From an uncultured Actinomycetota bacterium (GTDB taxonomy: Bacteria; Actinomycetota; Actinomycetes; JAHEKZ01): DNA of 64,000 bases. Numbering within the stretch: the first letter of the stretch is position 1; every line of letters begins with the position of its first letter. Below the pieces are notes generated by a model, which worked only from the letters and a program-made list of their open reading frames with translations, did no database searches and was not told where the DNA came from. This document shows, in pieces, positions 37,903 through 53,971 of the stretch. The stretch lies in assembly GCA_963829525.1 (NCBI GenBank), contig CAWHIJ010000003.1:2464001-2528000 (forward strand). The letters are read 5' to 3'. The translations under genes and the position numbers were made by a program.

Positions 37903-37979
37903 GCGTTCACCCTGACGCACATCAGGAACCGAGGCCAGCTGGCGTTCTACCGTGGACGCCATCAGGTCGACGTGGAGTC

Positions 37980-39401
37980 CTACGCCCTGGCGAGGACCTG
38001 CGCGGCCGCGTTCCAACCACCCATACCGTGCACTCCCCCGCCGGGGGGCGTCGACGACGAGCACATGAAGAGGCCGGGAACCGGCGTCGCCCAAGGAGAT
38101 CTAGACAACACCGGTCGCGCGATGAACTGCCGCCAGTCCGATGCCCCACCAGCGATGTCGCCGCCCACCTCGTTGGCGTTATGCGCCTCCAGGGCAGCTG
38201 TGTCCATCGTGTGGCGAGCCAGGATCCGATCCTTGAAGCCGGGTGCGAACCGCTCGATCTGCGCTTCGATCCGGTCTGTCATGTCGACCCGTGAGCCGTT
38301 CGGTACATGGCAGTACGCCCAGCCGGTGTGCTTGCCAGTGGGAGCTCTCGACGAGTCGGCCGTGCTCGCTTGGACGAACAGCACATACGGATGATCGGGA
38401 TGCTCACCTGCCGCCGTGGCCTTCTCGCTGAGAGCTACTTCGTCTGCCGTGCCGCAGACATGAACGGTGCCGGCACCTGCAAGGCGCTCATCGCCCCAGG
38501 GCACGGGACCATCCAACGCCCAGTCGACCTTGAACACCCCCGGTCCATACCGAAAGGCCTCGAGGCGCTTTCGATAACCAGTTGGCAGGACCTCCCGAGC
38601 AACCTCGGTCACCTGCCGTGGTGTGAGATCGAGGACGACGGTGGACTCCTTCAGCAGGTCAGTCACCGAGGTCACCCGCTGGCCGGTCACCACTTCGCCG
38701 CCCAGCGAGCGCAAGCGCGACACTAGGGCGTCGGCAATGCTCTGCGAGCCACCAACAGCCACCGGCCAGCCGACGGTGTGCGCGAGGCCTCCGAGGAGCA
38801 TGCCGAAGCCGGCCGTTGTCAGCGAGTTCAGCGACAACATCGAGTGAGCGGCCAGCCCGGCCAAGAGCGCGCGAGCTGGCTCCTCGCGGAAAGCCGCTCG
38901 CCCAACCCACCGTTCTGGCCAGGCTCCGACGCTGCCGTAGGCCGCCAGCGCCAGCGGCGCCTTGGGAGGGAAGTCCAGTGGTGACAGCAGACCATCGACC
39001 AAGGGCTCCCCACCACGGGCCACACCGCCAACGATCCGTCCCCAGGCAGCGCCGTCGCGGCCAAGCTCTGCAGCGGTACGATCGAGATCTTGGTAGACGA
39101 CTCCAGCGGTGTACTGGTCCACCGGATGTCCGAAGGCCGCTGCGGGTTGAGCAAACTCCAGACCATCACGTGCGAGGTCAATGGCTCGAAACGCCGGCGA
39201 CGCCAGCGCCAATGGGTGGACGCTTGAGCAGACGTCGTGGCGGAATCCGGGAAGGGTCAGCTCCTCGGTCCGCAGCCCTCCTCCCACCTGATCCGCCGCC
39301 TCGAGGACTGCCACCTTCTGACCAGCTTCAGCTAAGCGAATAGCCGCGACGAGACCGTTCGGGCCGGAACCGACCACAACGGTGTCAACGCCCATGCTCA
39401 A
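37980..39401 (-). CDS. Phytoene dehydrogenase-like FAD-dependent oxidoreductase
   Basis: VVVGSGPNGL.AA, GGGLRTEELTLPGF.HDVCS, KVDWALDGPVPW, WAYCHVP, STPPGGGVHGM.G. Confidence 0.88.
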   Translation of the reverse strand: MSMGVDTVVVGSGPNGLVAAIRLAEAGQKVAVLEAADQVGGGLRTEELTLPGFRHDVCSSVHPLALASPAFRAIDLARDGLEFAQPAAAFGHPVDQYTAGVVYQDLDRTAAELGRDGAAWGRIVGGVARGGEPLVDGLLSPLDFPPKAPLALAAYGSVGAWPERWVGRAAFREEPARALLAGLAAHSMLSLNSLTTAGFGMLLGGLAHTVGWPVAVGGSQSIADALVSRLRSLGGEVVTGQRVTSVTDLLKESTVVLDLTPRQVTEVAREVLPTGYRKRLEAFRYGPGVFKVDWALDGPVPWGDERLAGAGTVHVCGTADEVALSEKATAAGEHPDHPYVLFVQASTADSSRAPTGKHTGWAYCHVPNGSRVDMTDRIEAQIERFAPGFKDRILARHTMDTAALEAHNANEVGGDIAGGASDWRQFIARPVLSRSPWATPVPGLFMCSSSTPPGGGVHGMGGWNAAAQVLARA

Positions 39402-39444
39402 TGGTCATCCTCACGTTGTCTCAGGCATCGGCCTGACACGCGAA

Positions 39445-40656
39445 TCATCTCTCTCGCAACCAAAGGCCGGCCACTGAGGGTTGCATGGTGCGGCTCAGCA
39501 ACGCCAGTAGGTCTTGGGAGACGATATCCGGCTCGACCCGGTCGCGCAGTCGACGGGCGAACGACTGCACTGTCTGCTCTGCGTCATAGCGCGACCGGTT
39601 GAAGCGTCGATCAACGATGGCCCGCGTACGGACGAGCACCGGTCGGAAGGCGGCCGCCGCAGTGAGCGTGGCAACCGCGACGGACATCTGGTTGGGCAGT
39701 TGAAAGAGCGATGTTGCCACAGACACGATTCCGACGTAGACGGCGACAACGACTCCCGTCACTACGGCGTATGACGTTGTACGACTGACGACCTTGTCTA
39801 TGTCGTACAGGCGATGCCGCAGAACCGCGACGGCAATTCCCGCGGGAAGCGCAACTCCGGCCATCGACCACAACAGGCTGCCGTGCAGCACTCCGTCTGC
39901 GCTATTGATCGCGGCCAGTGCCCACTCAGGCAACTGAGCGGCGACCAGGATCAGCAGTGGCCCTGCGAGCCCGCCGGCCGCGACCCACATCACCTGCTGA
40001 CGCTCGAGGCCTTTGGCTCGGTACCAGCGGAGACCAAGGCAAAGTGGGGCGGCGACTAGCCCGAGCGTCACTAATGATCCCAGGCCCGTAAGGAACCCGT
40101 TGACCACCGACGCCACACCTGTCGGCTCGATGCCGGCGTCCTGCTCCTCTCGGAAGATCATCGCGTCGAGGGCCGCACTGACCACGCTGATCGCGGTCAG
40201 CCAGATCACCCACCGCCACCGTCGGGAAAGCGGACGACCCGTTGGCGCCAGCAGCAGGAGCACCACGACTCCCCCCACGAAGAGCACCTGGCAGGCGGAG
40301 GTGCCGGCGTACAACCAGTGCCCCGCTGATTCCGACAAGCTCAACTGGGCACTCGATGCGTCGACGGAACCGAACAGCCCTTGGAGTGCTCCGATCACGC
40401 CCACGACCAGCATCAGTGTGCCTAGCCGATTCCCTCTGTCGCGCGAGACGATCAGGTATCCCATCGCCCCGTAGCTGATTGCGCCGACACCAGTTTCGAG
40501 CCAGGTCTGGAAGGGTTCTGGCACTCCGCTGCGGTATTGCCAACCGGTCAGCAAGCTGGTGACGGTGACGCAACCTACGATCACGATCAAGGCGGTCAAT
40601 GCCGCAGGCGAAGGAACTCCCTCCGACTTCTTCTCCGGACGCGTCGGCGCGTTCAC
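39445..40656 (-). CDS. Multi-TM sensor-like membrane protein, array copy 7 (ends at the start of a GAF-like domain)
   Basis: NRLG, LLAPTGRPLSRRWR, GLERQQ..W, VLRHRLYDIDK..SRT..Y, DRRFNR.RYDAE, TMQPSVAGLWL; GTG start overlaps upstream stop (GTGA 40653-40656). Confidence 0.85.
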   Translation of the reverse strand: MNAPTRPEKKSEGVPSPAALTALIVIVGCVTVTSLLTGWQYRSGVPEPFQTWLETGVGAISYGAMGYLIVSRDRGNRLGTLMLVVGVIGALQGLFGSVDASSAQLSLSESAGHWLYAGTSACQVLFVGGVVVLLLLAPTGRPLSRRWRWVIWLTAISVVSAALDAMIFREEQDAGIEPTGVASVVNGFLTGLGSLVTLGLVAAPLCLGLRWYRAKGLERQQVMWVAAGGLAGPLLILVAAQLPEWALAAINSADGVLHGSLLWSMAGVALPAGIAVAVLRHRLYDIDKVVSRTTSYAVVTGVVVAVYVGIVSVATSLFQLPNQMSVAVATLTAAAAFRPVLVRTRAIVDRRFNRSRYDAEQTVQSFARRLRDRVEPDIVSQDLLALLSRTMQPSVAGLWLRER

Positions 40657-41837
40657 GCCCGTCCTCCGGCAACCCACAGTCCCACACGTGATGGCTGCAG
40701 AGTCTTGTCCAGGATTCCCAGCACCTCTTCGGTGACCACGTCTGTGTCGACCTCGCGGGCAAGACGTTCGCTGAAGGCATGGACCGTGTTCTCTGCGTCA
40801 TATCGCGTCCGGTCAAAGCGACGATCCACCCTGGTCTGAGTCCACCGTAGAGCTGGTCGAAACACCGCGGCTGCCACCAGCGTTGCCAATGCGACCGGAA
40901 GCGTGTCCGAGACAGGCATGACGGCGCTAGCGGCAGCGACGACGACGAGATAGACCACAACCACGAGCGCTGTTACCAAAGCGTAGGACGTCGACCGGCT
41001 GATGATGCGGTCAATGTCATAAAGGTGGTAGCGAAGTATCGCTACCCCCACCGACAACGGGAGCAGCGACAGCACCACTGCCAACAGAACCGTGTCGCTT
41101 GCCGACCAGTTGGTGGACAGGGCCTGCACCATGAAGAGCGCCATCACAACACCTGCAAGAACAAGCCACTTGATCTGAGACTGCTCCCGGACATTCCCGC
41201 GACGGAAACGCACAGCCAGGGACCAGACCGAGAGCGCCATCGCGGCTATGAAACCAAGGGCCAGGAACTCAAGAGACTGGATGAATCCTGCGAGCCAGTC
41301 GGGTGCGTACGGATTTGGCTTCGATAGGCCAGCTGCATCGGTGTACTCCGCGTTTGAGAAGGCCACCACCAAGCTCCACGTCACTGCAACGACACCCGAG
41401 CCCCAGGCCACGGGCCGCCACCGCCGGCTCAGCAGGTGACCATCCGGGAAGAGCAGGAAGGGAAAGGTCAGCATCACACACAAGAACGGCGCCCAGGTCC
41501 AGTTGCCGAACCACTCCGCCGCGATCCCACCGAAGCCGCCAGGCCTCACGACCGTGGCCCAGGCGACGTAGCCATTTACGGCAACGCCAAGAGCAAGCCA
41601 GAGTCCGCATCCAAGGAAGATCCATCCGATGGGGTTGTCTCGACGCTTGGTGGAAATAAGTAGTCCGACGGATCCGATGGCCAGAGCCGGAAGCCCAAGT
41701 GGAAGCGAACTGAGCGTTTCGCTCCACCCCATCGTGCGAGCGTTGATGACTGTCATTGAAGCGCCCACGAGGAGGAGCACCACCGTCAGCATCCAAAGCA
41801 CCCGCGCCAGGACAGTCACCCATCGGGCCCGATTCAT
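40653..41837 (-). CDS. Multi-TM sensor-like membrane protein, array copy 6
   Basis: RRDNPIGW, LLFPDGHLLSRRWRP, ILRYHLYDIDRII, DRRFDR.RYDAE, TLQPSRVGLWV; ATGA coupling. Confidence 0.85.
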   Translation of the reverse strand: MNRARWVTVLARVLWMLTVVLLLVGASMTVINARTMGWSETLSSLPLGLPALAIGSVGLLISTKRRDNPIGWIFLGCGLWLALGVAVNGYVAWATVVRPGGFGGIAAEWFGNWTWAPFLCVMLTFPFLLFPDGHLLSRRWRPVAWGSGVVAVTWSLVVAFSNAEYTDAAGLSKPNPYAPDWLAGFIQSLEFLALGFIAAMALSVWSLAVRFRRGNVREQSQIKWLVLAGVVMALFMVQALSTNWSASDTVLLAVVLSLLPLSVGVAILRYHLYDIDRIISRSTSYALVTALVVVVYLVVVAAASAVMPVSDTLPVALATLVAAAVFRPALRWTQTRVDRRFDRTRYDAENTVHAFSERLAREVDTDVVTEEVLGILDKTLQPSRVGLWVAGGRA

Positions 41838-43087
41838 ACGTGGCTCATTTCTGTCGACGCGCTCGGCGGCACGCTGGCGCGGTCCTCGGCAGAGGGCACT
41901 AACCCGGCGCGCAGCCAGACACCGACGCCAGCAGGTTGGAATACCAACTGCACGACTGACTCCAGATCGGCCTGGACCACTCCCTCCTCGCTGCTCACCC
42001 GGAGGCGGTCAGCAAACTCTCCTATCGCCAACTCTGCGTCGTAGTGCTCGCGATCGAATCTGCGGTCCACTACTCGACGAACGCGTCTCAGCAGAGGCCG
42101 AAACGCCGCCGCTACGAGCAGCGTTGCCGCCGCGACGACGAGCGGCTGCCTACCGCTCACGAGTTCACTTGCAGTCGCAACCGTCACTGCATAGATGGCG
42201 ATCAACGAGCCGGTGACAAGGACATAGGAAGTGGTGCGGCTAATGATTCGATCGATGTCGTAGAGCCGATAGCGCAAGATCGCCACGCCGCAGGACACAA
42301 CGAAGAATGAGAGGACGAGCACCTCGGCGATTGAAGTGAGCGCTGGGGGGACAAAGCGGCCGAAGGTGGCTTCGAACGCGACGAGAAGGACGATCAGCGC
42401 GACCGCGAAGCCGAACCACCGCATCTGCTCGCGTTCGATCCCTCGCGAACGCCTTACCCGAAGGACCGAGGAGACGATGGACGCCGCCATCCCCGCCAGG
42501 AAAAGCAGGCCAAAGAACCCAGCGAATGCGGAGTCCTCGACGCTAGACACACTGGCCATGAAGGGTGGTGAGAATGGGTTTGGCGCTGACCGGGTGACCT
42601 CACCCGCCGATGAGTACTCCACTCCAACGGTTGGAACCATTGCCGCAACGAGGGTGATTCCCAGGGCGGAGAGCGTCGAGAGCCAGAGGACCGGGCGCCA
42701 TCGTGGGGACAGCAAACCAGATGGGAACAGAAGCAGCGTCACCGTGGTCAACAGGAAGAGCAAGGGGTACCAGGCCCATGCGGAGACCCACGCAGCCAGG
42801 AAACCCCACCAAGGCACTTCACCCGGTACCCGCGTCGCTAATGAAGTGGTCACGACCGCAAGGGACAGCGTTCCCGCCAGGGTGCCAATGCCGAGGAAGA
42901 CCCAACCCATCGGATTGCTTGGTCGCTGACGTGCCACCGAGGCGCCAACCACCGTCTCCGCGGCAACCGGGAAGAGCAGCAGGGGATTCTGCATCTCGCC
43001 AAATGTGAACGCGGCTGAAACGATCCCGATCGCCGCTGTCACCACCATCACCCACCACACGACGCGCAGCCCGACGTGCGCGTTCAT
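41834..43087 (-). CDS. Multi-TM sensor-like membrane protein, array copy 5
   Basis: RPSNPMGW, LLFPSGLLSPRWRP, ILRYRLYDIDRII, DRRFDREHYDAE, VFQPAGVGVWL; ATGA coupling. Confidence 0.85.
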   Translation of the reverse strand: MNAHVGLRVVWWVMVVTAAIGIVSAAFTFGEMQNPLLLFPVAAETVVGASVARQRPSNPMGWVFLGIGTLAGTLSLAVVTTSLATRVPGEVPWWGFLAAWVSAWAWYPLLFLLTTVTLLLFPSGLLSPRWRPVLWLSTLSALGITLVAAMVPTVGVEYSSAGEVTRSAPNPFSPPFMASVSSVEDSAFAGFFGLLFLAGMAASIVSSVLRVRRSRGIEREQMRWFGFAVALIVLLVAFEATFGRFVPPALTSIAEVLVLSFFVVSCGVAILRYRLYDIDRIISRTTSYVLVTGSLIAIYAVTVATASELVSGRQPLVVAAATLLVAAAFRPLLRRVRRVVDRRFDREHYDAELAIGEFADRLRVSSEEGVVQADLESVVQLVFQPAGVGVWLRAGLVPSAEDRASVPPSASTEMSHV

Positions 43088-44301
43088 GGCGTCTGCTCCG
43101 GTATCCAGACCGCCATGCTCGCGGGTTGTACGGTGGCACCGAGCACGGCGAGAAGATCCGAACGCACCTCTTCGCCCTCGACCTCGTCACGAAGCCTGAC
43201 CGCGAAGGCCTCTACTGCGCGCTCGGCATCGAACTGCTCACGGTTGAACCTCCGGTCCACCACCTGACGGGCCCATCGCAACACCGGCCGGAACAACCCG
43301 GCCGCAACCAAAGTCGCAACCGCAACCGCCCACGAGTCTGGCGCTCCCGTCGAACCAGACTCCGGAACCAACTGCGTTAACGACGTGACCACCACCGCAT
43401 AAACCGCCAGCAATACCCCAGTGACCAACGCATACGCCGTCGTCCGACCAATAATCCGATCAATGTCGTACAAGTGGTAGCGAAGAATCGCCACCCCACA
43501 AGTCAACGGAACCAGCATCATGATGAGCGTGAAAGTGACGTCTCCGAGCGCAGAGTCACGGAACCCCGGCGATACACCTCCGATCACCATGTGCAACGGA
43601 ATGAGCAGAATGGCGAACGCGAAGAGTCGCATCTGCAGCCGCTCGACGCCCCGAGACTGCCAGGTGCGCAGCACAACCGACCAGATCGATGCCAGCCCAC
43701 AAGCAACTGCCAGAAGGATCAGCCCCTGAACACCTGGAGAATCCAGCGAAGGGTCCGCTTCAACGATGAATGATGGAGCTAGCGAGTTGCTGACCACAAC
43801 AGCGTTGGCCTCGACACCTACCTCACCGATATCGATCGTCGGTGCCGTCGCAAATGCCAAGGTCAGCAATCCAGTGACCCAGGCAGATAGCCACAGCACC
43901 GGGCGCCATCGCGTCGACTTCAGCCCAGAAGGGTAAAGCAGCAGGCCGAACGTACAAATCAGCATCAATAGGGGCAGCCAGGCCCAGCTGTAGAACCAGC
44001 CGGCCAGCACCACCATGCCTTCGATGGGTGTTCCGGAATCCACGGCCGCCTGGACGACGGCCCCAGAGTCGATGCTGAGAATCAGGAGAAGGCCCACGCA
44101 CATCAAGAGCCAACCAAAGGGGTTCTTCGGCCGACGAAGCGCAATCAGGGCTCCGACACCGACGTAGCTGATAACGGTGAAGAGTAGGAAGAAGTTGTCG
44201 ATGTCGAACGATGGTGGCACCAGAATCTCGACGACGCAGGAGACCCCAGTCGCAGCAAGGATCAGCCACCAGACTCCTCGCTGAACGATTCGCGAACTCA
44301 T
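43084..44301 (-). CDS. Multi-TM sensor-like membrane protein, array copy 4
   Basis: RRPKNPFGW, LLYPSGLKSTRWRP, ILRYHLYDIDRII, DRRFNREQFDAE, TVQPASMAVWI; ATGA coupling. Confidence 0.85.
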   Translation of the reverse strand: MSSRIVQRGVWWLILAATGVSCVVEILVPPSFDIDNFFLLFTVISYVGVGALIALRRPKNPFGWLLMCVGLLLILSIDSGAVVQAAVDSGTPIEGMVVLAGWFYSWAWLPLLMLICTFGLLLYPSGLKSTRWRPVLWLSAWVTGLLTLAFATAPTIDIGEVGVEANAVVVSNSLAPSFIVEADPSLDSPGVQGLILLAVACGLASIWSVVLRTWQSRGVERLQMRLFAFAILLIPLHMVIGGVSPGFRDSALGDVTFTLIMMLVPLTCGVAILRYHLYDIDRIIGRTTAYALVTGVLLAVYAVVVTSLTQLVPESGSTGAPDSWAVAVATLVAAGLFRPVLRWARQVVDRRFNREQFDAERAVEAFAVRLRDEVEGEEVRSDLLAVLGATVQPASMAVWIPEQTP

Positions 44302-45491
44302 GACGTCGGCTCCCGAAGCCAGACTGTGGTGCTGGCCGGCTGGACCGTTGCGCGGAGCACGGCCAGGAGGTCAGCACGAACCTGCCCGCTGTCGACCTCA
44401 TCGCGCAACCTCACCGCGAAGGCTTCCACCGCGCGCTCGGCGTCGAACTGCTCACGGTTGAACCTCCGGTCCACCACCCGTCGCGCCCATCGCAACACCG
44501 GCCGGAACAACCCCGCAGCAACCAAGGTGGCCACCGCAACCGCCCACGAGTCAGCCTGCCCCGTCGACCCTGACTCCGGGACCAGACTCGTCAACGACGT
44601 CACGACCGCCGCGTACACAGCCAACAGGACAGCCGTGACCAACGCATACGCCGTCGTCCGACCAATAATCCGATCAATGTCGTACAGGTGGTAGCGAAGA
44701 ATCGCCACCCCACATGCCAGGGGAAGCAACGACAACACCACTGCTAGAAGAACTGTGTCGCTCGATGTCCACTCCGTAAGCAAGGACTGCACCATGAAGA
44801 GAGCCGAGACGAGGCCCGCGAGGATCAGCCACTTGATCTGGGAACGCTCGCGGTATCCACCACCACGGAAACGCAGCACCAACGACCACACCGACAGTCC
44901 CAGGGTAAGGAGAAAGCCAAGAGCGACGAACTCGAGTGCGTCAACGAAATCGCGAAGGGCCTCCGGAGTGTAGGGATTCTGCTTCGGCCGGCCGGCCGCA
45001 TCGGTGTACTGCGTGCTTGAGAACGCAACACTCAGCGTCCAGATGACAGTGACCACCCCTGCGCCCCATGCGACAGGACGCCACCGTGCGTTCAGCAAGT
45101 GACCATCGGGGAAGAGTAAGAAGGGGAAGGTGAGGAACACCGCCAGAAGCGGTGCCCACGGCCAGTTGCCGAACCACTCGGAGGCCGTTCCGCCGAAGCC
45201 ACCAGGCCTCACCACGGTGGCCCAGCCGGTGTATCCGGTATTGGCAATCGCCACTGAGATCCATAGGCCGCAGCCGAGGTAGATCCAACCAATCGCGTTG
45301 TCCGTGCGCCTGGTGGCGATCAGCAAGCCAACAGTTCCCAGGGCAAGAGCAGGCAGACCCAGGGCAATCACGCTCAGCGTGTAACTCGAACCAATCGTGC
45401 CGAAATTGACTATGACGAGAACGCACCCGACGAGAAGCAGAGCGACCAGCAGCGACCACAGACCTCGAGCCAAGTAGGTTGCTCGCCTCAT
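44298..45491 (-). CDS. Multi-TM sensor-like membrane protein, array copy 3 (mosaic)
   Basis: N-terminal part close to copy 6, C-terminal part close to copies 2 and 4; TVQPASTTVWL; ATGA coupling. Confidence 0.85.
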   Translation of the reverse strand: MRRATYLARGLWSLLVALLLVGCVLVIVNFGTIGSSYTLSVIALGLPALALGTVGLLIATRRTDNAIGWIYLGCGLWISVAIANTGYTGWATVVRPGGFGGTASEWFGNWPWAPLLAVFLTFPFLLFPDGHLLNARWRPVAWGAGVVTVIWTLSVAFSSTQYTDAAGRPKQNPYTPEALRDFVDALEFVALGFLLTLGLSVWSLVLRFRGGGYRERSQIKWLILAGLVSALFMVQSLLTEWTSSDTVLLAVVLSLLPLACGVAILRYHLYDIDRIIGRTTAYALVTAVLLAVYAAVVTSLTSLVPESGSTGQADSWAVAVATLVAAGLFRPVLRWARRVVDRRFNREQFDAERAVEAFAVRLRDEVDSGQVRADLLAVLRATVQPASTTVWLREPTS

Positions 45492-46726
45492 GGCGTGGGC
45501 TCCTTCAACCAGAGGCCAGTAGAGGCCGGTTGCACAGTCGACCCCAGCACCTTCAGCAGGTCCGACCGCACTTCCTCGCCCTCGACCTCGTCGCGAAGCC
45601 TGACTGCAAAGGCTTCCACCGCGCGCTCGGCATCGAACTGCTCACGGTTAAACCTCCGGTCCACCACCCGGCGCGCCCACCGCAATACCGGCCGGAACAA
45701 TCCAGCCGCGACCAACGTGGCCACAGCAACAGCCCACGAGTCCGCTTGTCCTGTCGAACCCGACGCCGGCACCAGACTGGTCAACGACGTCACCACGGCT
45801 ACGTAAACGCCGAGAAGCACGCCCGTAACAAGGACATAGGCAGTGGTCCGTCCAATGATCCGGTCAATGTCGTACAGCCGGTAACGCAGGATCGCCACAC
45901 CACACGAAAGGGGAATGAGCGCGAAGGCAACGGCCAGGAGGACGTAGCGCCCCGTGGAGTGTCCGTGCTCGGCCAAGTACTGAGCGGGCCAAAGAACCAG
46001 GATCAGCAAGGCGATGGCGGCTGCGAAGAGTCGCATCTGTAGGCGTTCAACGCCAGTCGAACGCCAGGTGCGACGTACGGCTGCCCCAACGGCCGCCACG
46101 ACGCACACTGCCATGAGCGAGATGAATACCGGAAAGATGAAGTCAAGGGGTCGGGCGTCCGGACCATCTGGGTGCGCCGACATGACCTGGCCAACGAAGT
46201 TCGGTGACATCGGATTCTCAAGCTCGACCTGAGCAGAACCAGTGCCAGGCAAGTCGACCCATACCGTTGGGGCGGTGACCCCGAGAACGAAGCTGGAAGC
46301 GATCAAGGCCCATGCCAGCCATAGGACGGGCCTCCACCTATGTGAAGGGAGGCCGGAGGGATACAGCAGAAAGGTGACCGCCGTCGAGAGGAGAATCAGA
46401 GGGAACACCAGCGCGATCCCCAACTGCGCCGGGATAGCCACATCGGGACCGTACGGGAGCCCGCCGGCCTGGGCACGCTCCGTCAGGGACAGCAATAGCG
46501 CGGTCAGCGACCCCAGGAGACCTACGAAGAGAAAGACCCAGCCGATCGCGTTGTCTGGGCGCCGATAGGCAATGACGGCACCCACCGGCGCGAAGACCAG
46601 ATAGGCGAGAAAGAGAAGGTCTTCTTCCCCGTAGCCGGGCTGCACAACGGTCTTGACGACCAGAACCACCATGATCGCGGCAAGTACTCCCCACCACACG
46701 GCCCGCTGCAGCCCCAGTCGGTTCAT
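45488..46726 (-). CDS. Multi-TM sensor-like membrane protein, array copy 2
   Basis: RRPDNAIGW, LLYPSGLPSHRWRP, ILRYRLYDIDRII, TVQPASTGLWL; ATGA coupling. Confidence 0.85.
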   Translation of the reverse strand: MNRLGLQRAVWWGVLAAIMVVLVVKTVVQPGYGEEDLLFLAYLVFAPVGAVIAYRRPDNAIGWVFLFVGLLGSLTALLLSLTERAQAGGLPYGPDVAIPAQLGIALVFPLILLSTAVTFLLYPSGLPSHRWRPVLWLAWALIASSFVLGVTAPTVWVDLPGTGSAQVELENPMSPNFVGQVMSAHPDGPDARPLDFIFPVFISLMAVCVVAAVGAAVRRTWRSTGVERLQMRLFAAAIALLILVLWPAQYLAEHGHSTGRYVLLAVAFALIPLSCGVAILRYRLYDIDRIIGRTTAYVLVTGVLLGVYVAVVTSLTSLVPASGSTGQADSWAVAVATLVAAGLFRPVLRWARRVVDRRFNREQFDAERAVEAFAVRLRDEVEGEEVRSDLLKVLGSTVQPASTGLWLKEPTP

Positions 46727-47919
46727 GTGATCGGCTCGCGGGTCCAGAGGGCAAAGGCGCCGGGCTGAACTGTCATCTCGAGAGTCGCAACGAGTTCTTC
46801 TGAGACGACCGCGGGTTGCACCTGGTGTCGCATCCGATCAGCGAACTGTTCCACCGCCATCTGACCGTCATACCTTTGTCGGTTGAAGCGCCGGTCGACG
46901 AAGCCCTGGACGCGCGTGAGAACTGGTCTGAAGAGTGCCGCCGCGGTCAAGGTGGCAACAGCCACAACCGGTCCGTCAGCCGTGTTGGGCAGGAGGCCAG
47001 ATGCGAGTGTGATCACACCCACGTACACCGCGATCAAGGTAAGGCTGACCAGTGCGTACGAGACCGTCCGACTAACGAGGCGATCTAGCTCATAGAGCCG
47101 ATAGCGGCTCACAGCAATACCAATCGCTACGGCAATCGCGTTCATCGGCAGTGCCCACAGGAGGTTCACCAGTCCGAACTGCAGGATCTCGTCAGCGCCG
47201 GTCGGCAGCAGTTCAAGCGTCGCGATGGTGGCCAGTGCCACCGCCACGCCGGCGATGAACCACCGGTACTGCAGCCGAACGATCCCAGTGCTACCCCTCC
47301 AACGAAGGGTCTGGCTGATCAGCGTGGCGAGAACGAGAGTGGGAACAACGAGGAAGCCGGGCCCTTCGATGAACCAGGTGCTAATCCCTTCCAGCATGCT
47401 CACCCGAAGTGGGTTGGGTCGCTCACTGTCGATCAGCCGTGGACCCACCAGGTTGAGGAACGTGATCCACACCGCCAGGGCACACAGGACACGAGACAGC
47501 ACCTTCGCTCCTCGCGTGGCTCCGAACCCCGAGGGGAATGCGATAACCACCCCGATGAGCCCGATCCAGCCGAGCGCCCCGGCGAGCATGCCGGGCATCT
47601 CCAGCAGCACCGGTCCACGCGGCGACGGGCGGAGAAGCAGATCGTGCGTTGCGGTCGTGATCGCCATGCAGGAACCGGTGAAGAGCAGCAGCCGTCCGAC
47701 TGTGTTAGCACGCCGGTGGAGCAGGATCATCATTCCGACGATCGGAAACCCGACCCAGGCGATTCCCCACCACGAGTCGGCCTGAGATGTCGATTCTGAA
47801 GCGTCCGCGAGGCCCAACTCGATGGCGACATTCCAAAGGAAGCCAGAGAGCAGCACTGCCGTGACGACCATCGCGGTCCCGACGAGTGCCGCCCTGCGAT
47901 AGCTCTCCCTCTCGCCCAA
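46723..47919 (-). CDS. Multi-TM sensor-like membrane protein, array copy 1 (start uncertain: TTG 47919 or ATG 47871)
   Basis: RRANTVG, FPSG, VSRYRLYELDRLVSRTVSY, DRRFNRQRYDG, TVQPGAFALW. Confidence 0.8.
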   Translation of the reverse strand: MGERESYRRAALVGTAMVVTAVLLSGFLWNVAIELGLADASESTSQADSWWGIAWVGFPIVGMMILLHRRANTVGRLLLFTGSCMAITTATHDLLLRPSPRGPVLLEMPGMLAGALGWIGLIGVVIAFPSGFGATRGAKVLSRVLCALAVWITFLNLVGPRLIDSERPNPLRVSMLEGISTWFIEGPGFLVVPTLVLATLISQTLRWRGSTGIVRLQYRWFIAGVAVALATIATLELLPTGADEILQFGLVNLLWALPMNAIAVAIGIAVSRYRLYELDRLVSRTVSYALVSLTLIAVYVGVITLASGLLPNTADGPVVAVATLTAAALFRPVLTRVQGFVDRRFNRQRYDGQMAVEQFADRMRHQVQPAVVSEELVATLEMTVQPGAFALWTREPIT

Positions 47920-47929
47920 GGCGGGCCGC

Positions 47930-48676
47930 CTATCCGCTGGACCGCTGCGGACGGAGCATCCTGATCGGGGTCGTGACAATGTGGATCCCGGAACGGATTC
48001 CGGAGTTGTGCCACACGTTCCGCCAGTTCGACCACAACCGCTTGCGGTCGACGCAGATGGTCTCCTCGGACACCTTGGCGTCCACGACGCCGTAGTGCGC
48101 GGCCAAGTTCGTCAGCGTTCCCATCCAGAACTCGTCTTCTTTACGACGAGCCACGGGCCAGGCAAGCTCCCAGATCGGGTCGTTGGGCCTGATCAGAATC
48201 TTGATCTCCACTCGAGTCTCACCGGCGTCCTCCTCCGCGGAGAACGTGATCATGCCCGCGAACATGTGCCCCTCGGGCGTCATGAAGGTGAAAGATTCCT
48301 CGTCGGCGTAGATGACCAAGATCCCCGTGGCCAACTTCGGCCCGTGACTGGCGATACCCACCTCTATCGGCGTCACCGCACCGGGCTCGATCCCCGTCAA
48401 GCTGTTGTGGAACACGCTGCCAGGGGGCCAGTAGTCGCCGAAGTTCACCTTCCAGTCGCCGATGAGCGACTTGGCACCGACCACCGATCCGAGATTCGTC
48501 GAGTACGTGCGTTGCCAAAGCCGGCCGAAGCCCTGCTGTGGACCGGTGACCTTCTTACCGGTGATGTTGTACCCGACCTTTGACTTCTCATCGGGTGCCG
48601 CCAGCCTGTCGACCTTGGTCGCCCAGTTGCCCGCATCGCGCGGACCGACTGGGTCGTTCGTGCCTGGGGTGGTCAT
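47930..48676 (-). CDS. DUF1990-like / SRPBCC-superfamily conserved protein
   Basis: GPQQGFGRLWQRTY, TGILVIYADEESFTFMTPEGHMFAGMITFSA, RPNDP..E, EDEFW..TL..LA; GAGGAG RBS. Confidence 0.65.
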   Translation of the reverse strand: MTTPGTNDPVGPRDAGNWATKVDRLAAPDEKSKVGYNITGKKVTGPQQGFGRLWQRTYSTNLGSVVGAKSLIGDWKVNFGDYWPPGSVFHNSLTGIEPGAVTPIEVGIASHGPKLATGILVIYADEESFTFMTPEGHMFAGMITFSAEEDAGETRVEIKILIRPNDPIWELAWPVARRKEDEFWMGTLTNLAAHYGVVDAKVSEETICVDRKRLWSNWRNVWHNSGIRSGIHIVTTPIRMLRPQRSSG

Positions 48677-48688
48677 CGCTTCTCCTCG

Positions 48689-49039
48689 TTACGCACTTGC
48701 GAGCGCGGTAGCAGCATCTGCGTGCAGTGCGATCGCCTCGTCGAGGCGGGTCAGCTCAAAGATCTGCCGGTAGTGATCGGTGAGGCCAACGGCAGCCAGC
48801 TTCTGCTGCTGACGGTTGGCGCGTACGAGCAAAGTGACGAGCATGCCGATTCCGCCACTGTTCATGTATGTGAGCCCAGTGAAGTCGAGGACGAGGAAGC
48901 GCGTTCCCGGGGCACAGGCCTCGTCGTACGCCGACATCAAAACCGGCTCGCACGCCGCGGTCACATCACCTGCGATCTCGATGACTGCTGTTCCGGCCTC
49001 GGGGAAGTGCACCGTCATGCTGACCTGTGGTTCTGACAT
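48689..49039 (-). CDS. STAS-domain anti-anti-sigma factor (SpoIIAA/RsbV-like) 2
   Basis: LDFTGLTYMNSGGIGMLV with phosphoacceptor-position Ser; HYRQIFELTRLD; AAGGA RBS. Confidence 0.9.
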   Translation of the reverse strand: MSEPQVSMTVHFPEAGTAVIEIAGDVTAACEPVLMSAYDEACAPGTRFLVLDFTGLTYMNSGGIGMLVTLLVRANRQQQKLAAVGLTDHYRQIFELTRLDEAIALHADAATALASA

Positions 49040-49058
49040 GAGTTTCGTCCTTTCGCCG

Positions 49059-49409
49059 TTATGCGGTGGTGGCGCCGACCGCGGCGTCAACGTCGGAGAA
49101 GACCTGGATGAAGTCGGACAAGCGAGTGATGTCGAAGATGTGGCGGTAGTGCTCTGTGAGTCCAGACGCGTGGACCGCCCGCTTCTCGGCTCGCGCTCGC
49201 CCCAGCAGACTCACGATCAGCGCGATGCCCGTGGAGTTGATGTAGTCGACCGCATCGAAGTCCAGGACGACGGTCGCCGGGCTCGACAAAGCTGCCGTGT
49301 CGTAAGCCGCGGCGAGCAGCCCCGATGCGTCACGGTCGATCTGTCCGGTGAGGACAATCACCGCAGTCTCCGGGTCATGGCGGACGACGACTTCATATTC
49401 TGTTGTCAT
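49059..49409 (-). CDS. STAS-domain anti-anti-sigma factor 1
   Basis: LDFDAVDYINSTGIALIV; HYRHIFDITRL; ATGA overlap with phosphatase stop. Confidence 0.9.
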   Translation of the reverse strand: MTTEYEVVVRHDPETAVIVLTGQIDRDASGLLAAAYDTAALSSPATVVLDFDAVDYINSTGIALIVSLLGRARAEKRAVHASGLTEHYRHIFDITRLSDFIQVFSDVDAAVGATTA

Positions 49410-51167
49410 GACGTGGCTCCGTCCTTCTCGGCTGGGTCAGCCGCTGATGGATCGACGTTGAGGACCAGCCGAACGGTGTGCCGCTCTTCCCTGGTGTGCT
49501 CTTCGCACTCGTCGACCATGTTCTCGATGAGGAACAGTCCCCATCCACGCGTTGTCTGCAGGCCCGCCAACTTCAGCTCGAGGTCGGGGGTGTCGGCGAC
49601 GGCGTCCTCGCCCCGTCCGCCGAGGTCGCTGATCTCGACAGCGATCCCCCGCGCGGTACGCAAGACCACCACGTCAACCGGAAGCTCGGCGCGATTGTGG
49701 TTGCCGTGCTCGATGGCATTCATCGCCGCCTCCGCGGAGGCCGTCTTGATGCGCTCGAGCTGGTCGGTGCTGAGCCCACTGTCTGCGACGATCTCGGCCA
49801 CTCGCGCTAGTACGAGCCGCTCATTCCCCGGTTCGCTGGGAACCGAGAACCTGGAGAGCACCTCCTCAGCCTCTGGTTGGGCCGGTCGAGCGGCTGCGCT
49901 CCGTTCCAGCGTCACCAGCGTGACGTCGTCCTCCTGCTCCAGGCCGCCGGAGAAGCGCTCCAACGTCGACACACATGCGTCAACGAGGGCGGGGCCGGAC
50001 TCCGCTTGCCCTACAAGGTCTTGGGTTCGGTCGAAGCCAAACATCTCGCCGTCATCGTTGTGTTGCTCCGTGATGCCATCGCTATAGAGCAGCAGGACCT
50101 CTCCTGGGTTGATGACCGCCTGCACCTCGTCGTAGGAACTCTCCGGCATCAGGCCAAGGGGCATTCCAGTCGCTCGCAGCTCGCGGACTCCGTCTCGACC
50201 CCGCACGAACGGCAAGTTGTGGCCGGCATTGGCCAACTGCACCTCGCCCGTGTCACGGTCGAAGACCAGCACCAGACAGGTCACAAACATGTGCGCTGGG
50301 ATGTCGGTGCAGAGCAGCTCGTTGACCCGTCCCAGAACCGCCGCAGGAGAGATGAGCCGCGGGCCGGCCTCGCGCAACAAGGCGTGGGTGCTGGCCATCA
50401 CCAGGGCCGCTGGCACACCTTTGTCCGTCACATCACCGGTGACCACCATGATGCGTCCGTCAGGAAGTTCCATGACGTCGTAGAAGTCCCCACCAACGGT
50501 GCGCGCCGGCAGATAGAAGGCTGACAGGTCCCAACCGGCCAAGTTCGGCAACGACTGCGGAAGGAACTGCTGCTGGATCAGCTGTGCGACGCGAAGCTCT
50601 TGCTCGATGCGCTCACGAACTCTCGCTTCGCCTTGCTGCTGACGTACCATCTGCCCAAGCCGCAGGGCCGGAGCGGCATACCGAGCGAGGGTGTCGAGAA
50701 GTCGTCGGTCGTCATGGGAGTACCCGCGCTCCGACAGGCGTTGGCCTAGCGCCAGCAGCCCCACCATTTCTCCCGAGGCAACGAGCGGTACGACCAGCTC
50801 GACGCCCGACTCGCGCATGTCGATGACGGCGGGTGAGTCTTGCGGCAGCGTCGTCACGTCCACCGGCCCTGACGCTCCCTGGAGGAAGGCCAGGACTGGG
50901 TCGTTGGGTGCGATGTCCAGGGTGAGGGTCTCGGTCTTCGAGGTGGCCAGCTCAACGGTCGGAGCCACCTCATCTGTGGCGCGGGGCCGGCGCCACCAGC
51001 GCCTGGTTCCGGCCGTCCCCTGTGCGGCCGGAGCCGGCGACGTGGAACCCTCGGGCCGATCCTCAGCCAGAGTCCGGGGCCGCGACGTCGAGCTCAAGTG
51101 GCTGAACCACTTCGCCTCCTGGTGCTGTGCCCCCTTGCGGGGTCGGACCTTCGTACGGCTCGAGCAT
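49406..51167 (-). CDS. Partial-GAF + SpoIIE/RsbU PP2C phosphatase + RsbW-type HATPase (anti-sigma kinase) fusion
   Basis: IAPNDP...LVVPLVASGEMVGLLALG..LSERGYS.DDRRLL.TLA (GAF C-half); VGGDFYD, GDVTDKGVPAALVM, NAGHN, YSDGITE, EDDVT; EAAMNAIEHGN, ISDLG, RGWGLFLI. ATG 51167 has GGGAGG RBS but needs one frameshift before about 51070 to join the main frame. Confidence 0.88.
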
Positions 51168-51185
51168 CGCGCACCTCCCGTTCCG

Positions 51186-51249
51186 AAAGCGTTACGGCAA
51201 CGGCCCACTTTGAAGAGTTTGGACGCTAGCGCAGTTAAAAGCGTTACGG
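51186..51249. promoter_or_regulatory. 12-bp direct repeat pair in the divergent promoter region
   Basis: AAAGCGTTACGG at 51186-51197 and 51238-51249 (52 bp apart) between phosphatase operon and SARP/BTAD regulator. Confidence 0.6.
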
Positions 51250-51256
51250 TTCCGGC

Positions 51257-53971
51257 GTGAACGAACTCAGGCTGCGGCTGTTCGGCGCCCCCGAGCTCTC
51301 GGTGGCAGGATCCCCGATCACCTTCGACACCCGCAAGGCTGTTGCGCTCATTGCCTACCTGGCGGTCACCGGCCGCCCACAGCGCCGCGAGAGCCTGGCC
51401 GCCCTCCTGTGGCCCGAGTCCGAACAGGGACGCGCCAGGGCGTCGCTGCGCCGAACTCTCTCAGCAGCTGCTGGGGCTGGTCCGGCTCTGATGATCCGTC
51501 GCGGAGAGATCGAGCTCGACACGAAGCAGATCTGGTGCGACGTGGCAGAGTTCGAGGCCCTTGCCTCCAGCGACAGGGCGTCTGCGCTCAGGCAGGCAGC
51601 AGCGTTGGCACCCGAATCCTTTCTCGCCGGGTTCACGTTGCGTGACAGCGCCGAGTTCGACGACTGGACGGCCACCACCGGCGATCGGCTGCGCGAACGC
51701 TTGGTCACGGTGTTGTCACGCGTTGCAGACATCGAAGCCTCCGCTGGCCAGCTCGACGATGCCATCGAAGCTGCCCGTCGGTGGGTCGACCTCGACCCGC
51801 TGAGTGAGGGAGCTCATCGTGCACTCATGCGGCTGTACACCTGGGCTGGTGAGCGTCCGACGGCGCTCAAGCAGTACCGCCAATGTGTTCGCAACCTTGA
51901 CCGAGAACTCGGTGTTGCGCCGCTGCCGGAGACGACTGAGCTCTACGACGACATTCGGGCCAACCGCCTCGATCCCCCGCTTCGGTCGACGACCACGACG
52001 GAGCGTCTCGACCCGCCACCTGCGGGAAGGGTCGCGCTGCCTTCCGCCCAAGTTGTTGCGGGCAGGGATGAAGACTCCGATGCGCTCGAAGCAGCGTGGC
52101 GGTCGGCTTCCCAAGAGGGGGCGAGCGCACTTCTCGTTGGCGCACCGGGGCTCGGACGTACCACGCTTTCGGCTCAACTTCGCAGAAACGTTGAGGACGC
52201 TGGCGGTGCAGCCATCTCACTGCGTGGCCATGCGGCCGAACTGGGACTCGCCTACGCAACGGTCATCGATCTCACGAGGGCACTTTCCGAACGCGACTCA
52301 GAAGTTGCCGATTCCCTGGGCGCCGTCGGCCAGGCTGTCGAGTCACCGGGTGAGCGCGCCCGGCTGTTTGACCTCGTGCGCGATGCCGCCAGCCGGGCAT
52401 TGCGCGGCCCAGTTGCCGGCCTCTTGGTCGTCGACGATGCCCATTGGCTCGACCCCACCTCGTCCGACCTCCTGGGTTACCTACTGCGAAGGCCGCCGGC
52501 TGGGGTGCTGGTGCTTGCGACCCTGCAGAGCGAGGCCTTCGAAGGCTCTACCCTCGATGAGATCGCGACCGTGGTGACTCTGAAGGAGTGGGATACCGAA
52601 CAGACGCGGGAGGCGCTCGTCGCACTCGACGCAGAATCCATCGACCCAACCGAGGCCCATCGGCGCACAGGTGGCAACCCTCGCCTCCTGACCGAGTACG
52701 TCCTGGCCTCTCGCGAAGTCGGTGGCTCTCCCTCAGGTCCGTTCCACGAGCTGGTTGGCGCGCGCTTGAACGCCGCACCAGCCGCCACCCGCCAGACCCT
52801 GGGGTCCACTGCCGTCCTTGGGACCGTGGCTGATCCAGACCTCATTCGGCAGGTAAGTGGGCGCGATGAGGTCGAGACCGTCCAGGCCCTTGAGGACGCC
52901 GTGGCCCGCGGTCTGCTCGTCGAGGATCCCGAACAACATGGATACGACTTCCCGCACGACGCCCTGCGCAACATGGTCATCGAGCGTGTCGGTCTCGCTC
53001 GCCTCCGCCTGCTCCACGGTCGCGCAGCGGACGCGCTCGTGCGGCAGCCTGCCGTCGATGGCGGGGGTGCCCCTGCTGGTCGTGTTGCCCGGCATCTTGC
53101 CCTCGCAGGCCGAGAGCCGGAGGCACGGGACTGGTACTGGATCGCCGCGCAGCAGTCCATCACCCTCTACGCACATCGCGAGGCCCTCGAGCACCTTCGG
53201 TCGGCACTCGCACTCGGTCACGACCCGGCCGTCAACCACGCGGCGACCGGTGACGCGCTTACCTCGCTGGGCCGGTACGACGATGCCCTCACCGCATACG
53301 AGGCGGCGGCAGCTGCAATCGGAGTCGATGACCCGAACCAGCTGGCCGTGGTCGAACACAAGCTGGCCGAGGTGCACGACCGCCTCGGTGACTGGGACGT
53401 GGCCCGCGCGCACCTGGAAAGCGCCGCCGAGCTGCTCGAGCCCAAGGGTGGTCTGGCCATGCGGGCGCAGGTCGCCGCCGACCTAGCCCTGGTGAGTTAC
53501 CGGCAGGGTGACCCAGGCGCAGAGAGGATCGGCGGGCAGGCACTGCACCTCGCGGTGGAGAGTGGCGATGCAGTCTCGATGTCACAGGCCAAGAACGTCC
53601 TAGGGGTACTGGCTTGCGCCAGAGGCGACTGCGACACAGCCGTCGGCTACCTCCAGGAGAGCAGGGACCAAGCGCACGTTGCCGGCAGCACCGAGCTCGA
53701 GGTGGCAGCACTGAACAACCTTGCGCGGTTACACGCGCAGGAAGGCGACCTCGACAAGGCCCTCGAATCAGCTCAAGCGGCCCTGCAGCTCGGACTTGCT
53801 CAAGGAGATCTGCACAGGGCGGCAGCTCTGCACGATCACGTCGCCGACCTCTATCACCGAGCAGGCAGAAATACAGATGCCATGGAGCACCTCAAAGCGG
53901 CCGCCTCGGCCTTCGGGGCGGTCGACGAGGCGCGGGTACGCCCCGAGGTGTGGAAGTTGGTGTCCTGGTAG
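51257..53971 (+). CDS. SARP-family regulator: wHTH-BTAD-AAA ATPase-TPR
   Basis: LRLFGAPEL, RKAVALIAYLA, RESLAALLWPE, DPLSEGAHRALMRLY, ELGVAPLPET; GAPGLGRTT; LVVDDAHW; TGGNP; YDFPHDALR; C-terminal TPRs. Confidence 0.9.
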   Translation: MNELRLRLFGAPELSVAGSPITFDTRKAVALIAYLAVTGRPQRRESLAALLWPESEQGRARASLRRTLSAAAGAGPALMIRRGEIELDTKQIWCDVAEFEALASSDRASALRQAAALAPESFLAGFTLRDSAEFDDWTATTGDRLRERLVTVLSRVADIEASAGQLDDAIEAARRWVDLDPLSEGAHRALMRLYTWAGERPTALKQYRQCVRNLDRELGVAPLPETTELYDDIRANRLDPPLRSTTTTERLDPPPAGRVALPSAQVVAGRDEDSDALEAAWRSASQEGASALLVGAPGLGRTTLSAQLRRNVEDAGGAAISLRGHAAELGLAYATVIDLTRALSERDSEVADSLGAVGQAVESPGERARLFDLVRDAASRALRGPVAGLLVVDDAHWLDPTSSDLLGYLLRRPPAGVLVLATLQSEAFEGSTLDEIATVVTLKEWDTEQTREALVALDAESIDPTEAHRRTGGNPRLLTEYVLASREVGGSPSGPFHELVGARLNAAPAATRQTLGSTAVLGTVADPDLIRQVSGRDEVETVQALEDAVARGLLVEDPEQHGYDFPHDALRNMVIERVGLARLRLLHGRAADALVRQPAVDGGGAPAGRVARHLALAGREPEARDWYWIAAQQSITLYAHREALEHLRSALALGHDPAVNHAATGDALTSLGRYDDALTAYEAAAAAIGVDDPNQLAVVEHKLAEVHDRLGDWDVARAHLESAAELLEPKGGLAMRAQVAADLALVSYRQGDPGAERIGGQALHLAVESGDAVSMSQAKNVLGVLACARGDCDTAVGYLQESRDQAHVAGSTELEVAALNNLARLHAQEGDLDKALESAQAALQLGLAQGDLHRAAALHDHVADLYHRAGRNTDAMEHLKAAASAFGAVDEARVRPEVWKLVSW

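Follow-up and report, generated by a model that had tools for sequence, protein, structure and literature searches.

The 64,000-nucleotide (nt) window analysed here, a stretch of contig CAWHIJ010000003.1 from an uncultured Actinomycetota bacterium, carries seven tandem genes for membrane sensors that end without a catalytic domain, and a single gene for a soluble enzyme in which a PP2C phosphatase and a HATPase kinase follow an incomplete GAF domain. The question raised by this locus is how such receptors could hand a signal on, and to which partner. An earlier note, written from the letters alone, had singled out the seven paralogous multi-transmembrane genes, the soluble PP2C/HATPase gene and two STAS genes and had read them as one system with a GAF domain split between genes; all of these genes are present, on the minus strand. 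The answer put forward here is that the locus encodes a split form of the architecture membrane sensor-GAF-coiled coil-PP2C(-HATPase_c_2), and that the sensor tails probably complete the GAF of the enzyme in trans. The N-terminal piece of this architecture is multiplied (seven tandem copies and four elsewhere in the genome) and consists of a membrane domain of about ten passes, a juxtamembrane helix, and helix 1 and strand 1 of the GAF. The C-terminal piece is a single soluble protein, and this enzyme and the two STAS proteins are encoded in a cluster that is conserved across Actinomycetota and Chloroflexota.

The place of the cut was read from relatives in which both pieces lie on one chain. 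A search for longer relatives of S2, the second of the sensors S1-S7, returned 36 proteins, including double sensors, histidine kinases in which the same membrane domain is followed by GAF, HisKA_3 and HATPase_c, and P0010, a sensor-GAF-PP2C-HATPase_c_2 protein of 910 amino acids (aa). Residues 51-393 of P0010 aligned to residues 43-412 of S2, reaching the final residue of the sensor (33% identity), and residues 402-897 aligned to residues 99-590 of the enzyme (54% identity, E 1e-170). Because the boundaries of the two alignments complement each other, S2 and the enzyme add up to P0010, with eight residues over.

The GAF profile runs across this junction in fused proteins of both kinds, as the earlier note had stated for fused sensor phosphatases and kinases. 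In the fused kinases it is matched nearly end to end (P0015, profile positions 2-132 at residues 390-516; P0017, 3-132; P0014, 4-132), and its start is a helix matching the last ~27 residues of the sensors. In alignment A5, P390 of P0015, where the GAF match begins, falls in the column of S2 residue ~383. Column for column, all sensors of this genome keep pace with the fused proteins up to and including '...DLL.VL..T.QP....LWL' and end there, where the fused proteins run on into the remainder of the GAF. Eight fused phosphatases were scanned, giving four clear junction-spanning GAFs, one weak and three partial. In P0277 the GAF (profile 3-133) covers residues 371-491, with the sensor profile ending at 395 and the enzyme profile beginning at 401; the corresponding values are 3-133 at 366-489 with the junction at 392/396 in P0304, 1-133 at 510-634 with the junction at 535/546 in P0289, and 2-130 at 358-493 with the junction at 383/405 in P0315. 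An alignment that combined P0010 with sensors and phosphatases (A4) was discarded in favour of A5, since MAFFT had laid the sensor tails on the phosphatase C-termini.

A whole GAF on one chain (PF01590, PF13185 or PF13492) was found neither in the sensors nor in the enzyme. The sensors hold only the part that aligns to GAF profile positions ~2-28 of the fused relatives. In the enzyme the Pfam matches cover only the last ~40% of three GAF profiles, with residues 131-182 matching positions 82-133 of 133 in one and the others matching 84-127 of 129 and 91-135 of 136. Taken together, and as the fused relatives show, the two pieces correspond by homology to a single whole GAF. As placed by alignment, the cut in the predicted domain lies after its first helix and first strand, in the loop that follows; strand 1 is a central strand of the GAF sheet.

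The fused architecture is common. When P0010 was scored against 1.84 billion representative proteins (many of the hits come from short contigs and are possibly cut), the sensor membrane domain and PP2C were found on one chain in 92 of 151 proteins, that is, P0010 and its 150 best hits; the sensor profile reaches the tail in 90 of the 92 and the HATPase part is also present in 16. The earlier note had supposed that fused homologues containing both halves exist, and these proteins, P0010 foremost, confirm it. Their abundance provides a Rosetta-stone argument for the pairing of sensor and enzyme. In a FastTree phylogeny of the half-GAF-to-PP2C part, calculated from 117 rows (34 of the 151 were dropped, as the profile match did not span that part) plus the window enzyme, the fused and unfused labels interleave, with 19 changes. 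The labels 'unfused' and 'no HATPase' are unreliable, many metagenome proteins being cut at contig ends, and neither a direction nor a number of fissions was drawn from the tree.

The seven sensors are 394-418 aa long and show 29-33% identity to S1. Their mutual tblastn E-values of 1e-20 to 1e-133 are far past chance, and the columns invariant in all seven cluster in the C-terminal third. A Kyte-Doolittle scan gave ~9-11 hydrophobic segments per sensor. Each protein ends 0-3 residues past the common ...T.QP....(L/V)W... segment, much as the earlier note described, with S5 and its 23 additional aa as the sole exception. No family scored above cut-off in the Pfam scan of S1-S6, and nothing significant was found for S7, which was scanned against NCBIfam only. 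HisKA and HATPase_c kinase domains were absent from S1-S6 in Pfam and from S1, S2 and S7 in NCBIfam. HisKA_7TM (PF16927) was matched only by S2, and weakly (E 0.0044, 17.3 bits with a cut-off of 28.6); a precomputed PF16927 match is present in some of the sensor homologues. A profile search of the PDB with the sensor family gave chance-level matches only, the best being photosystem II D2 at E 0.088, and at 27 residues the GAF piece is too short for such a search to pick it up. The tail of S2 is predicted to be cytoplasmic: the basic loops lie on alternate sides in keeping with the positive-inside rule, and the homology to kinases agrees, because their catalytic part must be cytoplasmic.

The genome holds 11 truncated sensors, so that the count of seven given in the earlier note is correct for the operon and too low for the genome. 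The four further copies share the same end point (Table 1). Two of them form a tandem pair adjoining a cysteinyl-tRNA synthetase-like gene. No fused form was found in this genome by tblastn (E <=1e-5).

The end point is equally fixed among sensors from elsewhere. The 120 best near-length relatives are mostly 'hypothetical proteins' of 385-420 aa. The literal DRRF motif occurs in 78 of them, and 75 of these 78 end 54-64 residues past it, the exceptions ending at 23, 77 and 114 residues. By-eye inspection of the 42 relatives with variant motifs indicated that most share the same end point. Double-sensor proteins of ~780-820 aa also occur, in which two sensor modules stand head to tail, each ending in the GAF piece, and an enzymatic domain is lacking (P0001-P0005 and P0007; L064:6840-9284 and L075:6955-9294). 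Four of the six double-sensor proteins were read as sequence and two were deduced from length and query coverage.

The enzyme combines two catalytic domains with the complementary part of the GAF (Table 1). Its PP2C region belongs to the SpoIIE family, with a full-length profile match and conserved aspartates: in an alignment of 119 homologues (120 sequences) D241, D244, D259, D262, D377, D427 and D428, which lie in GGDFYD, GDVTDKG, SDG and EDD, are invariant, and we take them to be the metal-binding residues. The kinase region is of the anti-sigma-factor serine kinase type, with N497, E500, H501, N503 and G555-W556-G557 invariant in the same 120 sequences; these presumably form the N-box and the G-box. 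Two hydrophobic windows lie within the conserved GAF and PP2C cores and are not membrane segments. Both small proteins encoded next to the enzyme are STAS proteins, scoring above the PF01740 cut-off with E about 1e-12, and have ...INSTG... and ...MNSGG... at the position of the DSSG-type motif, whose serine is presumably the phosphorylated residue.

The 120 best near-length relatives of the enzyme (335-598 aa) bear the source names 'SpoIIE family protein phosphatase' or 'RsbU/anti-sigma regulatory factor' and come from Microbacterium, Naasia, Nanopelagicales, Frankiaceae and Acidimicrobiales. Conservation in these homologues sets in at (V/I)DIAPNDP; the leader ahead of this motif is not conserved and abounds in proline, alanine and basic residues. 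In 20 of 23 loci the open frame permits only ~35-55 residues ahead of the half-GAF, comprising a basic segment and a variable linker. The basic segment, M..LT..FRRR..RR, is kept across the enzyme family, as are clusters of the RRWWRR type. The closer relatives of the window enzyme also keep a short N-terminal motif of the (V/L)E(V/L)D type; candidate roles of the leader motifs are contact with the membrane or with the sensor, or service as a stand-in strand. A second copy of the half-GAF enzyme was not found in the genome by tblastn with the N-terminal part (E <=1e-5). A GAF_3 search of the genome gave ten matches, two of which lie in short open frames (C3:893601-893999 and C3:1522712-1523329, with 133 and 206 codons), have the C-terminal GAF_3 part only and were rejected as unlike the DIAPNDP family.

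The extent of the association was studied in 80 related loci, one genome per species, chosen by enzyme relatives 51-88% identical to that of the window and searched as stop-to-stop frames with hidden Markov models built from A3 (sensor) and A2 (enzyme). Actinomycetes, Thermoleophilia, Acidimicrobiia and several Chloroflexota lineages are represented, and other groups appear in a few titles; strains of Kribbella, Nocardioides and Microbacterium are among the carriers. Of the 80 loci, 63 have one or more complete truncated sensors within 10 kb and on the same strand as the enzyme, and 72 have a sensor match of any kind; among the 17 that lack a full sensor there are several short contigs. A sensor and an enzyme fused in one frame were found in none of the 80. 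The loci contain 194 full-length sensor matches, up to eight per locus, and in 190 of them the stop falls no more than 25 aa past the end of the profile. The enzyme is preceded by the sensor array on the same strand in 49 loci and followed by it in 14, which are the closer relatives of the window.

The same association was seen when 301 genomes of the window's class were surveyed (the unpublished genomes G031, G262 and G035 are counted in these tallies; related genomes are not independent, so no statistic was calculated). The half-GAF enzyme is present in 32 of them, spread over eight family codes. The sensor profile matches 118 genomes at E <=1e-10, and the 31 genomes with a best sensor E-value of 1.6e-85 or lower are all among the 32 with the enzyme. 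Two genomes depart from the pattern: G138, an assembly of 350 contigs, has the enzyme only, and G155, which is 83% complete, lacks the enzyme and has its truncated sensors right where a contig begins. Weaker sensor matches were looked at in four genomes without the enzyme, and all 12 proved to be HisKA_3 kinases in which the GAF continues. The association of truncated sensors with half-GAF enzymes, on which the proposal of the earlier note depended, is thus borne out by the loci and by the phyletic pattern.

Comparison of 190 sensors from 63 loci revealed that their parts have different histories. The N-terminal membrane part is hardly more alike within a locus than between loci (identity 0.29 vs 0.26), and only 26 of the 170 sensors counted have their nearest relative within their own locus. 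The C-terminal parts have their nearest relative in the same locus for 62-86 of the 170, and identity within and between loci is 0.70 vs 0.51 for LRYRLYDID with the last two membrane segments, 0.76 vs 0.59 for the juxtamembrane helix and 0.65 vs 0.46 for the GAF piece. Within the window S2, S3 and S4 share 87% identity in the C-terminal part vs 31-37% in the N-terminal part, and for S3 and S6 the relation is reversed (67% N-terminal vs 52% C-terminal). Such mosaics indicate recombination or gene conversion between modules. Old and diverse sensing parts have been joined to a docking part that is kept alike in each genome, which fits a shared partner.

The genes form a co-directional string at 37980-51208 on the minus strand (Table 1). 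The 4-nt overlaps mentioned in the earlier note are real: ATGA joins PP2C/STAS1, S1/S2, S2/S3, S3/S4, S4/S5 and S5/S6, and GTGA joins S6/S7 provided that S7 starts at its second in-frame GTG, which is probably the case (GTG 40656). The more likely start of STAS protein 2 is ATG 49039, preceded by an AAGGA-like site. The soluble 248-aa protein encoded after it, which the earlier note had passed over and which extends its picture together with the oxidoreductase and the regulator, matches DUF1990 at E 2.2e-4 and 21.8 bits, below the Pfam cut-off of 23; a literature search for DUF1990 returned only the plant Oep23 channel and proteomics papers. The commonest gene order among the related loci is regulator (on the opposite strand), sensors where present, enzyme, STAS, STAS, DUF1990-like protein and oxidoreductase. 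A scan of 37800-51600 for promoters and terminators found no promoter-like site and two terminator-like sites, both intragenic and fewer than in shuffled sequences, and was uninformative.

Table 1. Positions of the genes, domains and sensor pieces discussed in the text (window coordinates, except for entries beginning with C3)
Feature	Position	Strand	Remarks
SARP/AfsR-like regulator	51257..53971	+	904 aa; divergent; BTAD, ATPase and TPR regions; weak NCBIfam AfsR/TPR matches; homologue on opposite strand, upstream, in 50/80 related loci
PP2C/HATPase enzyme, open reading frame	49406..51208	-	600 aa; longest open reading frame in assembly frame; relatives start at ATG 51167
Conserved enzyme N-terminus	51063..51167	-	MLEPYEG...VVQPLELDVAAP; in another frame than the gene; stops at TGA 51063-51065
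Half-GAF of enzyme, residues ~95-190	50639..50926	-	LTLDIAPNDP...VVPLVASGEMVGLLALG...DDRRLLDTLARYAAPALRL; predicted GAF strand 2 to last helix, without helix 1 and strand 1
SpoIIE PP2C (PF07228), residues 249-436	49901..50464	-	profile 1-191 of 192, E 2e-49
HATPase_c_2 (PF13581), residues 457-582	49463..49840	-	profile 2-126 of 127, E 1.7e-20
STAS protein 1	49059..49409	-	116 aa; Pfam STAS E 7e-13; in 80/80 related loci
STAS protein 2	48689..49090	-	Pfam STAS E 8e-13; found in related loci
DUF1990-like protein	47930..48676	-	248 aa; soluble; conserved cluster member; homologue in 75/80 related loci
Sensor S1	46723..47979	-	tail 46723-46932; GAF helix 1 + strand 1 piece 46735-46815
Sensor S2	45488..46726	-	tail 45488-45697; GAF helix 1 + strand 1 piece 45500-45580 (residues 383-409)
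Sensor S3	44298..45491	-	GAF piece 44310-44390
Sensor S4	43084..44301	-	GAF piece 43096-43176
Sensor S5	41834..43087	-	GAF piece 41906-41986, then 23-aa extension
Sensor S6	40653..41837	-	GAF piece 40665-40745
Sensor S7	39445..40677	-	GAF piece 39451-39531
FAD oxidoreductase, phytoene-desaturase family	37980..39401	-	473 aa; NCBIfam; last cluster gene; same-strand homologue in 51/80 related loci
Four further truncated sensors	C3:190949-192094, 2873247-2874416, 2874593-2875786, 1455171-1456553		all share the same end point

The start of the enzyme gene needs a comment, as the region singled out in the earlier note ends at 51167. A conserved ATG does lie at this position, and the stretch read from it, MLEPYEG...VVQPLELD, is that of the relatives; in the assembly it lies in a different reading frame from the remainder of the gene. 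Base 51076 is missing in the contigs of four out of four public metagenome runs of one study (one contig per run, depth 3-7, ~98-99% identical to the window over ~340-385 overlapping bases), and the frame is thereby restored. Without this base the two frames join, by our own arithmetic, into a protein of 586 aa, as long as the closest relative, P0037. The extra base, which falls in the non-conserved leader, is therefore attributed either to an error of the assembly or to a frameshift peculiar to the strain, and the half-GAF and the catalytic domains are unaffected by it.

The following mechanism can be proposed for the system. The helix and strand of a sensor tail would insert into the incomplete GAF of the phosphatase/kinase and complete its fold, and the completed GAF would hold the enzyme at the membrane. 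The conformation of the sensor would then be coupled to PP2C through the GAF and the coiled-coil linker; PMC12143880 proposes that in PPM phosphatase dimers such a linker transmits the input of whole N-terminal sensor domains, among them GAF domains. The enzyme would set the phosphorylation of the two STAS proteins, the kinase adding and the phosphatase removing the phosphate, and the STAS proteins would relay the signal to a target, for which the DUF1990-like protein, the FAD oxidoreductase and the SARP/AfsR-like regulator are candidates. Sensors with different sensing parts and one locus-specific docking module would compete for the transducer or share it. The arrangement may be pictured as a plug-and-socket bus with GAF plugs on the receptors (11 in this genome), a socket in the enzyme, and integration by competition among the receptors to complete, and thereby switch, the enzyme; the balance tips slightly in favour of this picture, in which the plugs would be kept matched to the socket by concerted evolution within each genome.

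Several observations weigh against completion of the GAF in trans. The GAF piece is only moderately conserved, with 35% mean identity among the 11 paralogues of the genome (57% for the preceding helix) and 45% in the family; the juxtamembrane helix and the LRYRLYDID region reach 54-66%, and the helix rather than the GAF piece could for this reason be the main docking surface. The conserved basic segment at the N-terminus of the enzyme might bind the sensors or the membrane instead, and gene conversion alone would yield the same homogenised pattern of C-terminal parts. Of the 11 sensors, four are encoded far away from the enzyme gene, and no sensor match was found in eight of the 80 loci, at least four of which have full 10-kb flanks (L010, L021, L024 and L025). 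No sigma factor gene is present in the operon or beside it, and the operon encodes no other defined output; a partner-switching module of the RsbU/V/W type has a sigma factor or another defined sequestered partner, and neither was identified here.

The retention of both the juxtamembrane helix and the basic segment would suit a different mode of binding, in which the sensors attach to the enzyme through that helix (DRRFNR..YDAE..V..F..RLR) and the basic segment without any completion of the GAF, the short GAF being stable alone or completed by strand exchange in an enzyme dimer. Synteny, co-occurrence and fused forms are compatible with any binding mode, this one included. It nevertheless appears rather unlikely, as it leaves unexplained why a GAF piece of 27 residues is retained and followed by an exact stop (190/194) and why the enzyme takes up the GAF precisely where the sensors leave off; strand 1 being a central strand of the sheet, a GAF lacking it is unlikely to be stable. 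It is quite improbable that the truncated sensors act alone, in some other membrane role or as decoys, with the neighbourhood due to co-regulation and the GAF piece a remnant. The unlinked sensors of this genome and the enzyme loci without a nearby sensor match speak for such independence, but a remnant would not keep one end point across two phyla. The occurrence of the two genes is nearly one-to-one, with both in 31 genomes, the enzyme only in one and the sensors only in one, the last two being incomplete or fragmented assemblies. The concerted evolution of the C-terminal modules within a locus and the commonness of fused forms point the same way. That the split is unreal, a product of pseudogene fragments, assembly errors, or recoding by frameshift or read-through at the junction, is very unlikely. 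The frame error in the phosphatase leader of this assembly and the 49 of 80 loci in which the last sensor stands directly upstream of the enzyme on the same strand might raise the suspicion. In the window, however, the enzyme is the first gene and the sensors begin four genes downstream, and read-through cannot join them because the enzyme precedes the sensors. The sensor frames are intact with coupled ATGA overlaps, and the same ends recur in 63 loci from independent assemblies. In the loci with upstream sensors 49-5700 nt (less than 800 nt in 38 of 49) separate the end of the sensor match from the conserved part of the enzyme, and within this stretch lie the start codon and the leader of the enzyme itself. 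Of the outcomes that the earlier note had named as refuting its idea, a lack of fused homologues and a lack of genomic association were looked for, and neither came true. Within the reach of sequence comparison and comparative genomics the interpretation of the earlier note is supported, and docking of the sensor tails by fold complementation would be its best reading.

Bacterial signalling proteins are generally regarded as assemblies of whole domains, either fused or brought together as complete proteins. In this system the divide between receptor and transducer falls inside a domain, at a point kept in two phyla, and one transducer is accompanied by many alternative receptors. If the halves reassemble, this would be a new wiring of many inputs to one output, and plug-and-socket coupling, if true, would be unlike phosphotransfer, partner switching between whole proteins and covalent domain fusion. 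It would also explain many 'hypothetical' membrane proteins of ~400 aa as well as the 'GAF-containing' SpoIIE phosphatases with a short GAF, would offer protein engineering a natural split-domain pair tuned by evolution, and would make the allosteric path from a membrane sensor to a PPM phosphatase genetically dissectable, its two sides being separate genes. For annotation, the N-terminal 'partial GAF' matches in these enzymes should be regarded as real biology and not as truncation artefacts.

Among known systems the closest are the fused sensor-GAF-PP2C proteins (P0010, P0277, P0289, P0304 and P0315), named 'SpoIIE family protein phosphatase' in their sources, which have the same membrane domain, juxtamembrane helix, GAF, coiled coil and PP2C, some of them with the kinase. 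They are single polypeptides with a whole GAF, whereas in the window the GAF is cut after strand 1, the sensors number seven plus four and the enzyme is single. We know of no experimental study of this fused family, for which no search by name was made. The window sensors resemble the HisKA_3 kinases with a whole GAF (P0015, P0017 and others) and PrsK (TIGR02916) in a homologous membrane domain, in LRYRLYDID, in the juxtamembrane helix and in the start of the GAF; PrsK was weakly matched in NCBIfam by S1 (positions 4-346) and by the enzyme (409-461). Unlike these kinases, the window sensors lack any kinase domain and stop within the GAF.

On the output side the system resembles RsbU/RsbV/RsbW of Bacillus subtilis and the related actinobacterial multidomain proteins Rv1364c of M. 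tuberculosis and OsaC of S. coelicolor, where STAS proteins are the targets of a PP2C phosphatase and an anti-sigma-type serine kinase, and the RsbU type has, like the window enzyme, an N-terminal regulatory domain joined to the PPM domain by a coiled-coil linker (PMC12143880). The window differs from RsbU/V/W in having the phosphatase and the kinase on a single chain, two STAS genes, no sigma factor in the operon and an incomplete GAF. The activator RsbT of B. subtilis is a complete protein in its own right and binds a complete N-terminal domain; it does not supply part of a fold. In the stressosome several RsbR paralogues feed one RsbT/RsbU output. The likeness lies in having many paralogous sensors to one phosphatase, diverged in their sensing parts and conserved in their docking part; stressosome sensors, however, are soluble STAS-domain proteins in a large complex, whereas those of the window are integral membrane proteins and the proposed coupling is the completion of a domain.

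Folds completed in trans are known from the donor-strand complementation of chaperone-usher pili, from split inteins and from the intermolecular PH domain of PLC-gamma1 and TRPC3. In these, as proposed here, one chain supplies a strand, or a strand and a helix, that is missing from the fold of another, but none of them is a bacterial sensory input domain and none offers one acceptor an array of alternative donors. The literature searched, which takes in few subscription journals, yielded no account of a split, partial or intermolecular GAF or of this cluster, so that an earlier description is possible. The parts of the system, GAF, PP2C, anti-sigma-type kinase and STAS, are ordinary. What is new is that one domain is shared out between genes, with the cut at a constant internal position, that one half has been multiplied, and that this state is conserved across two phyla.

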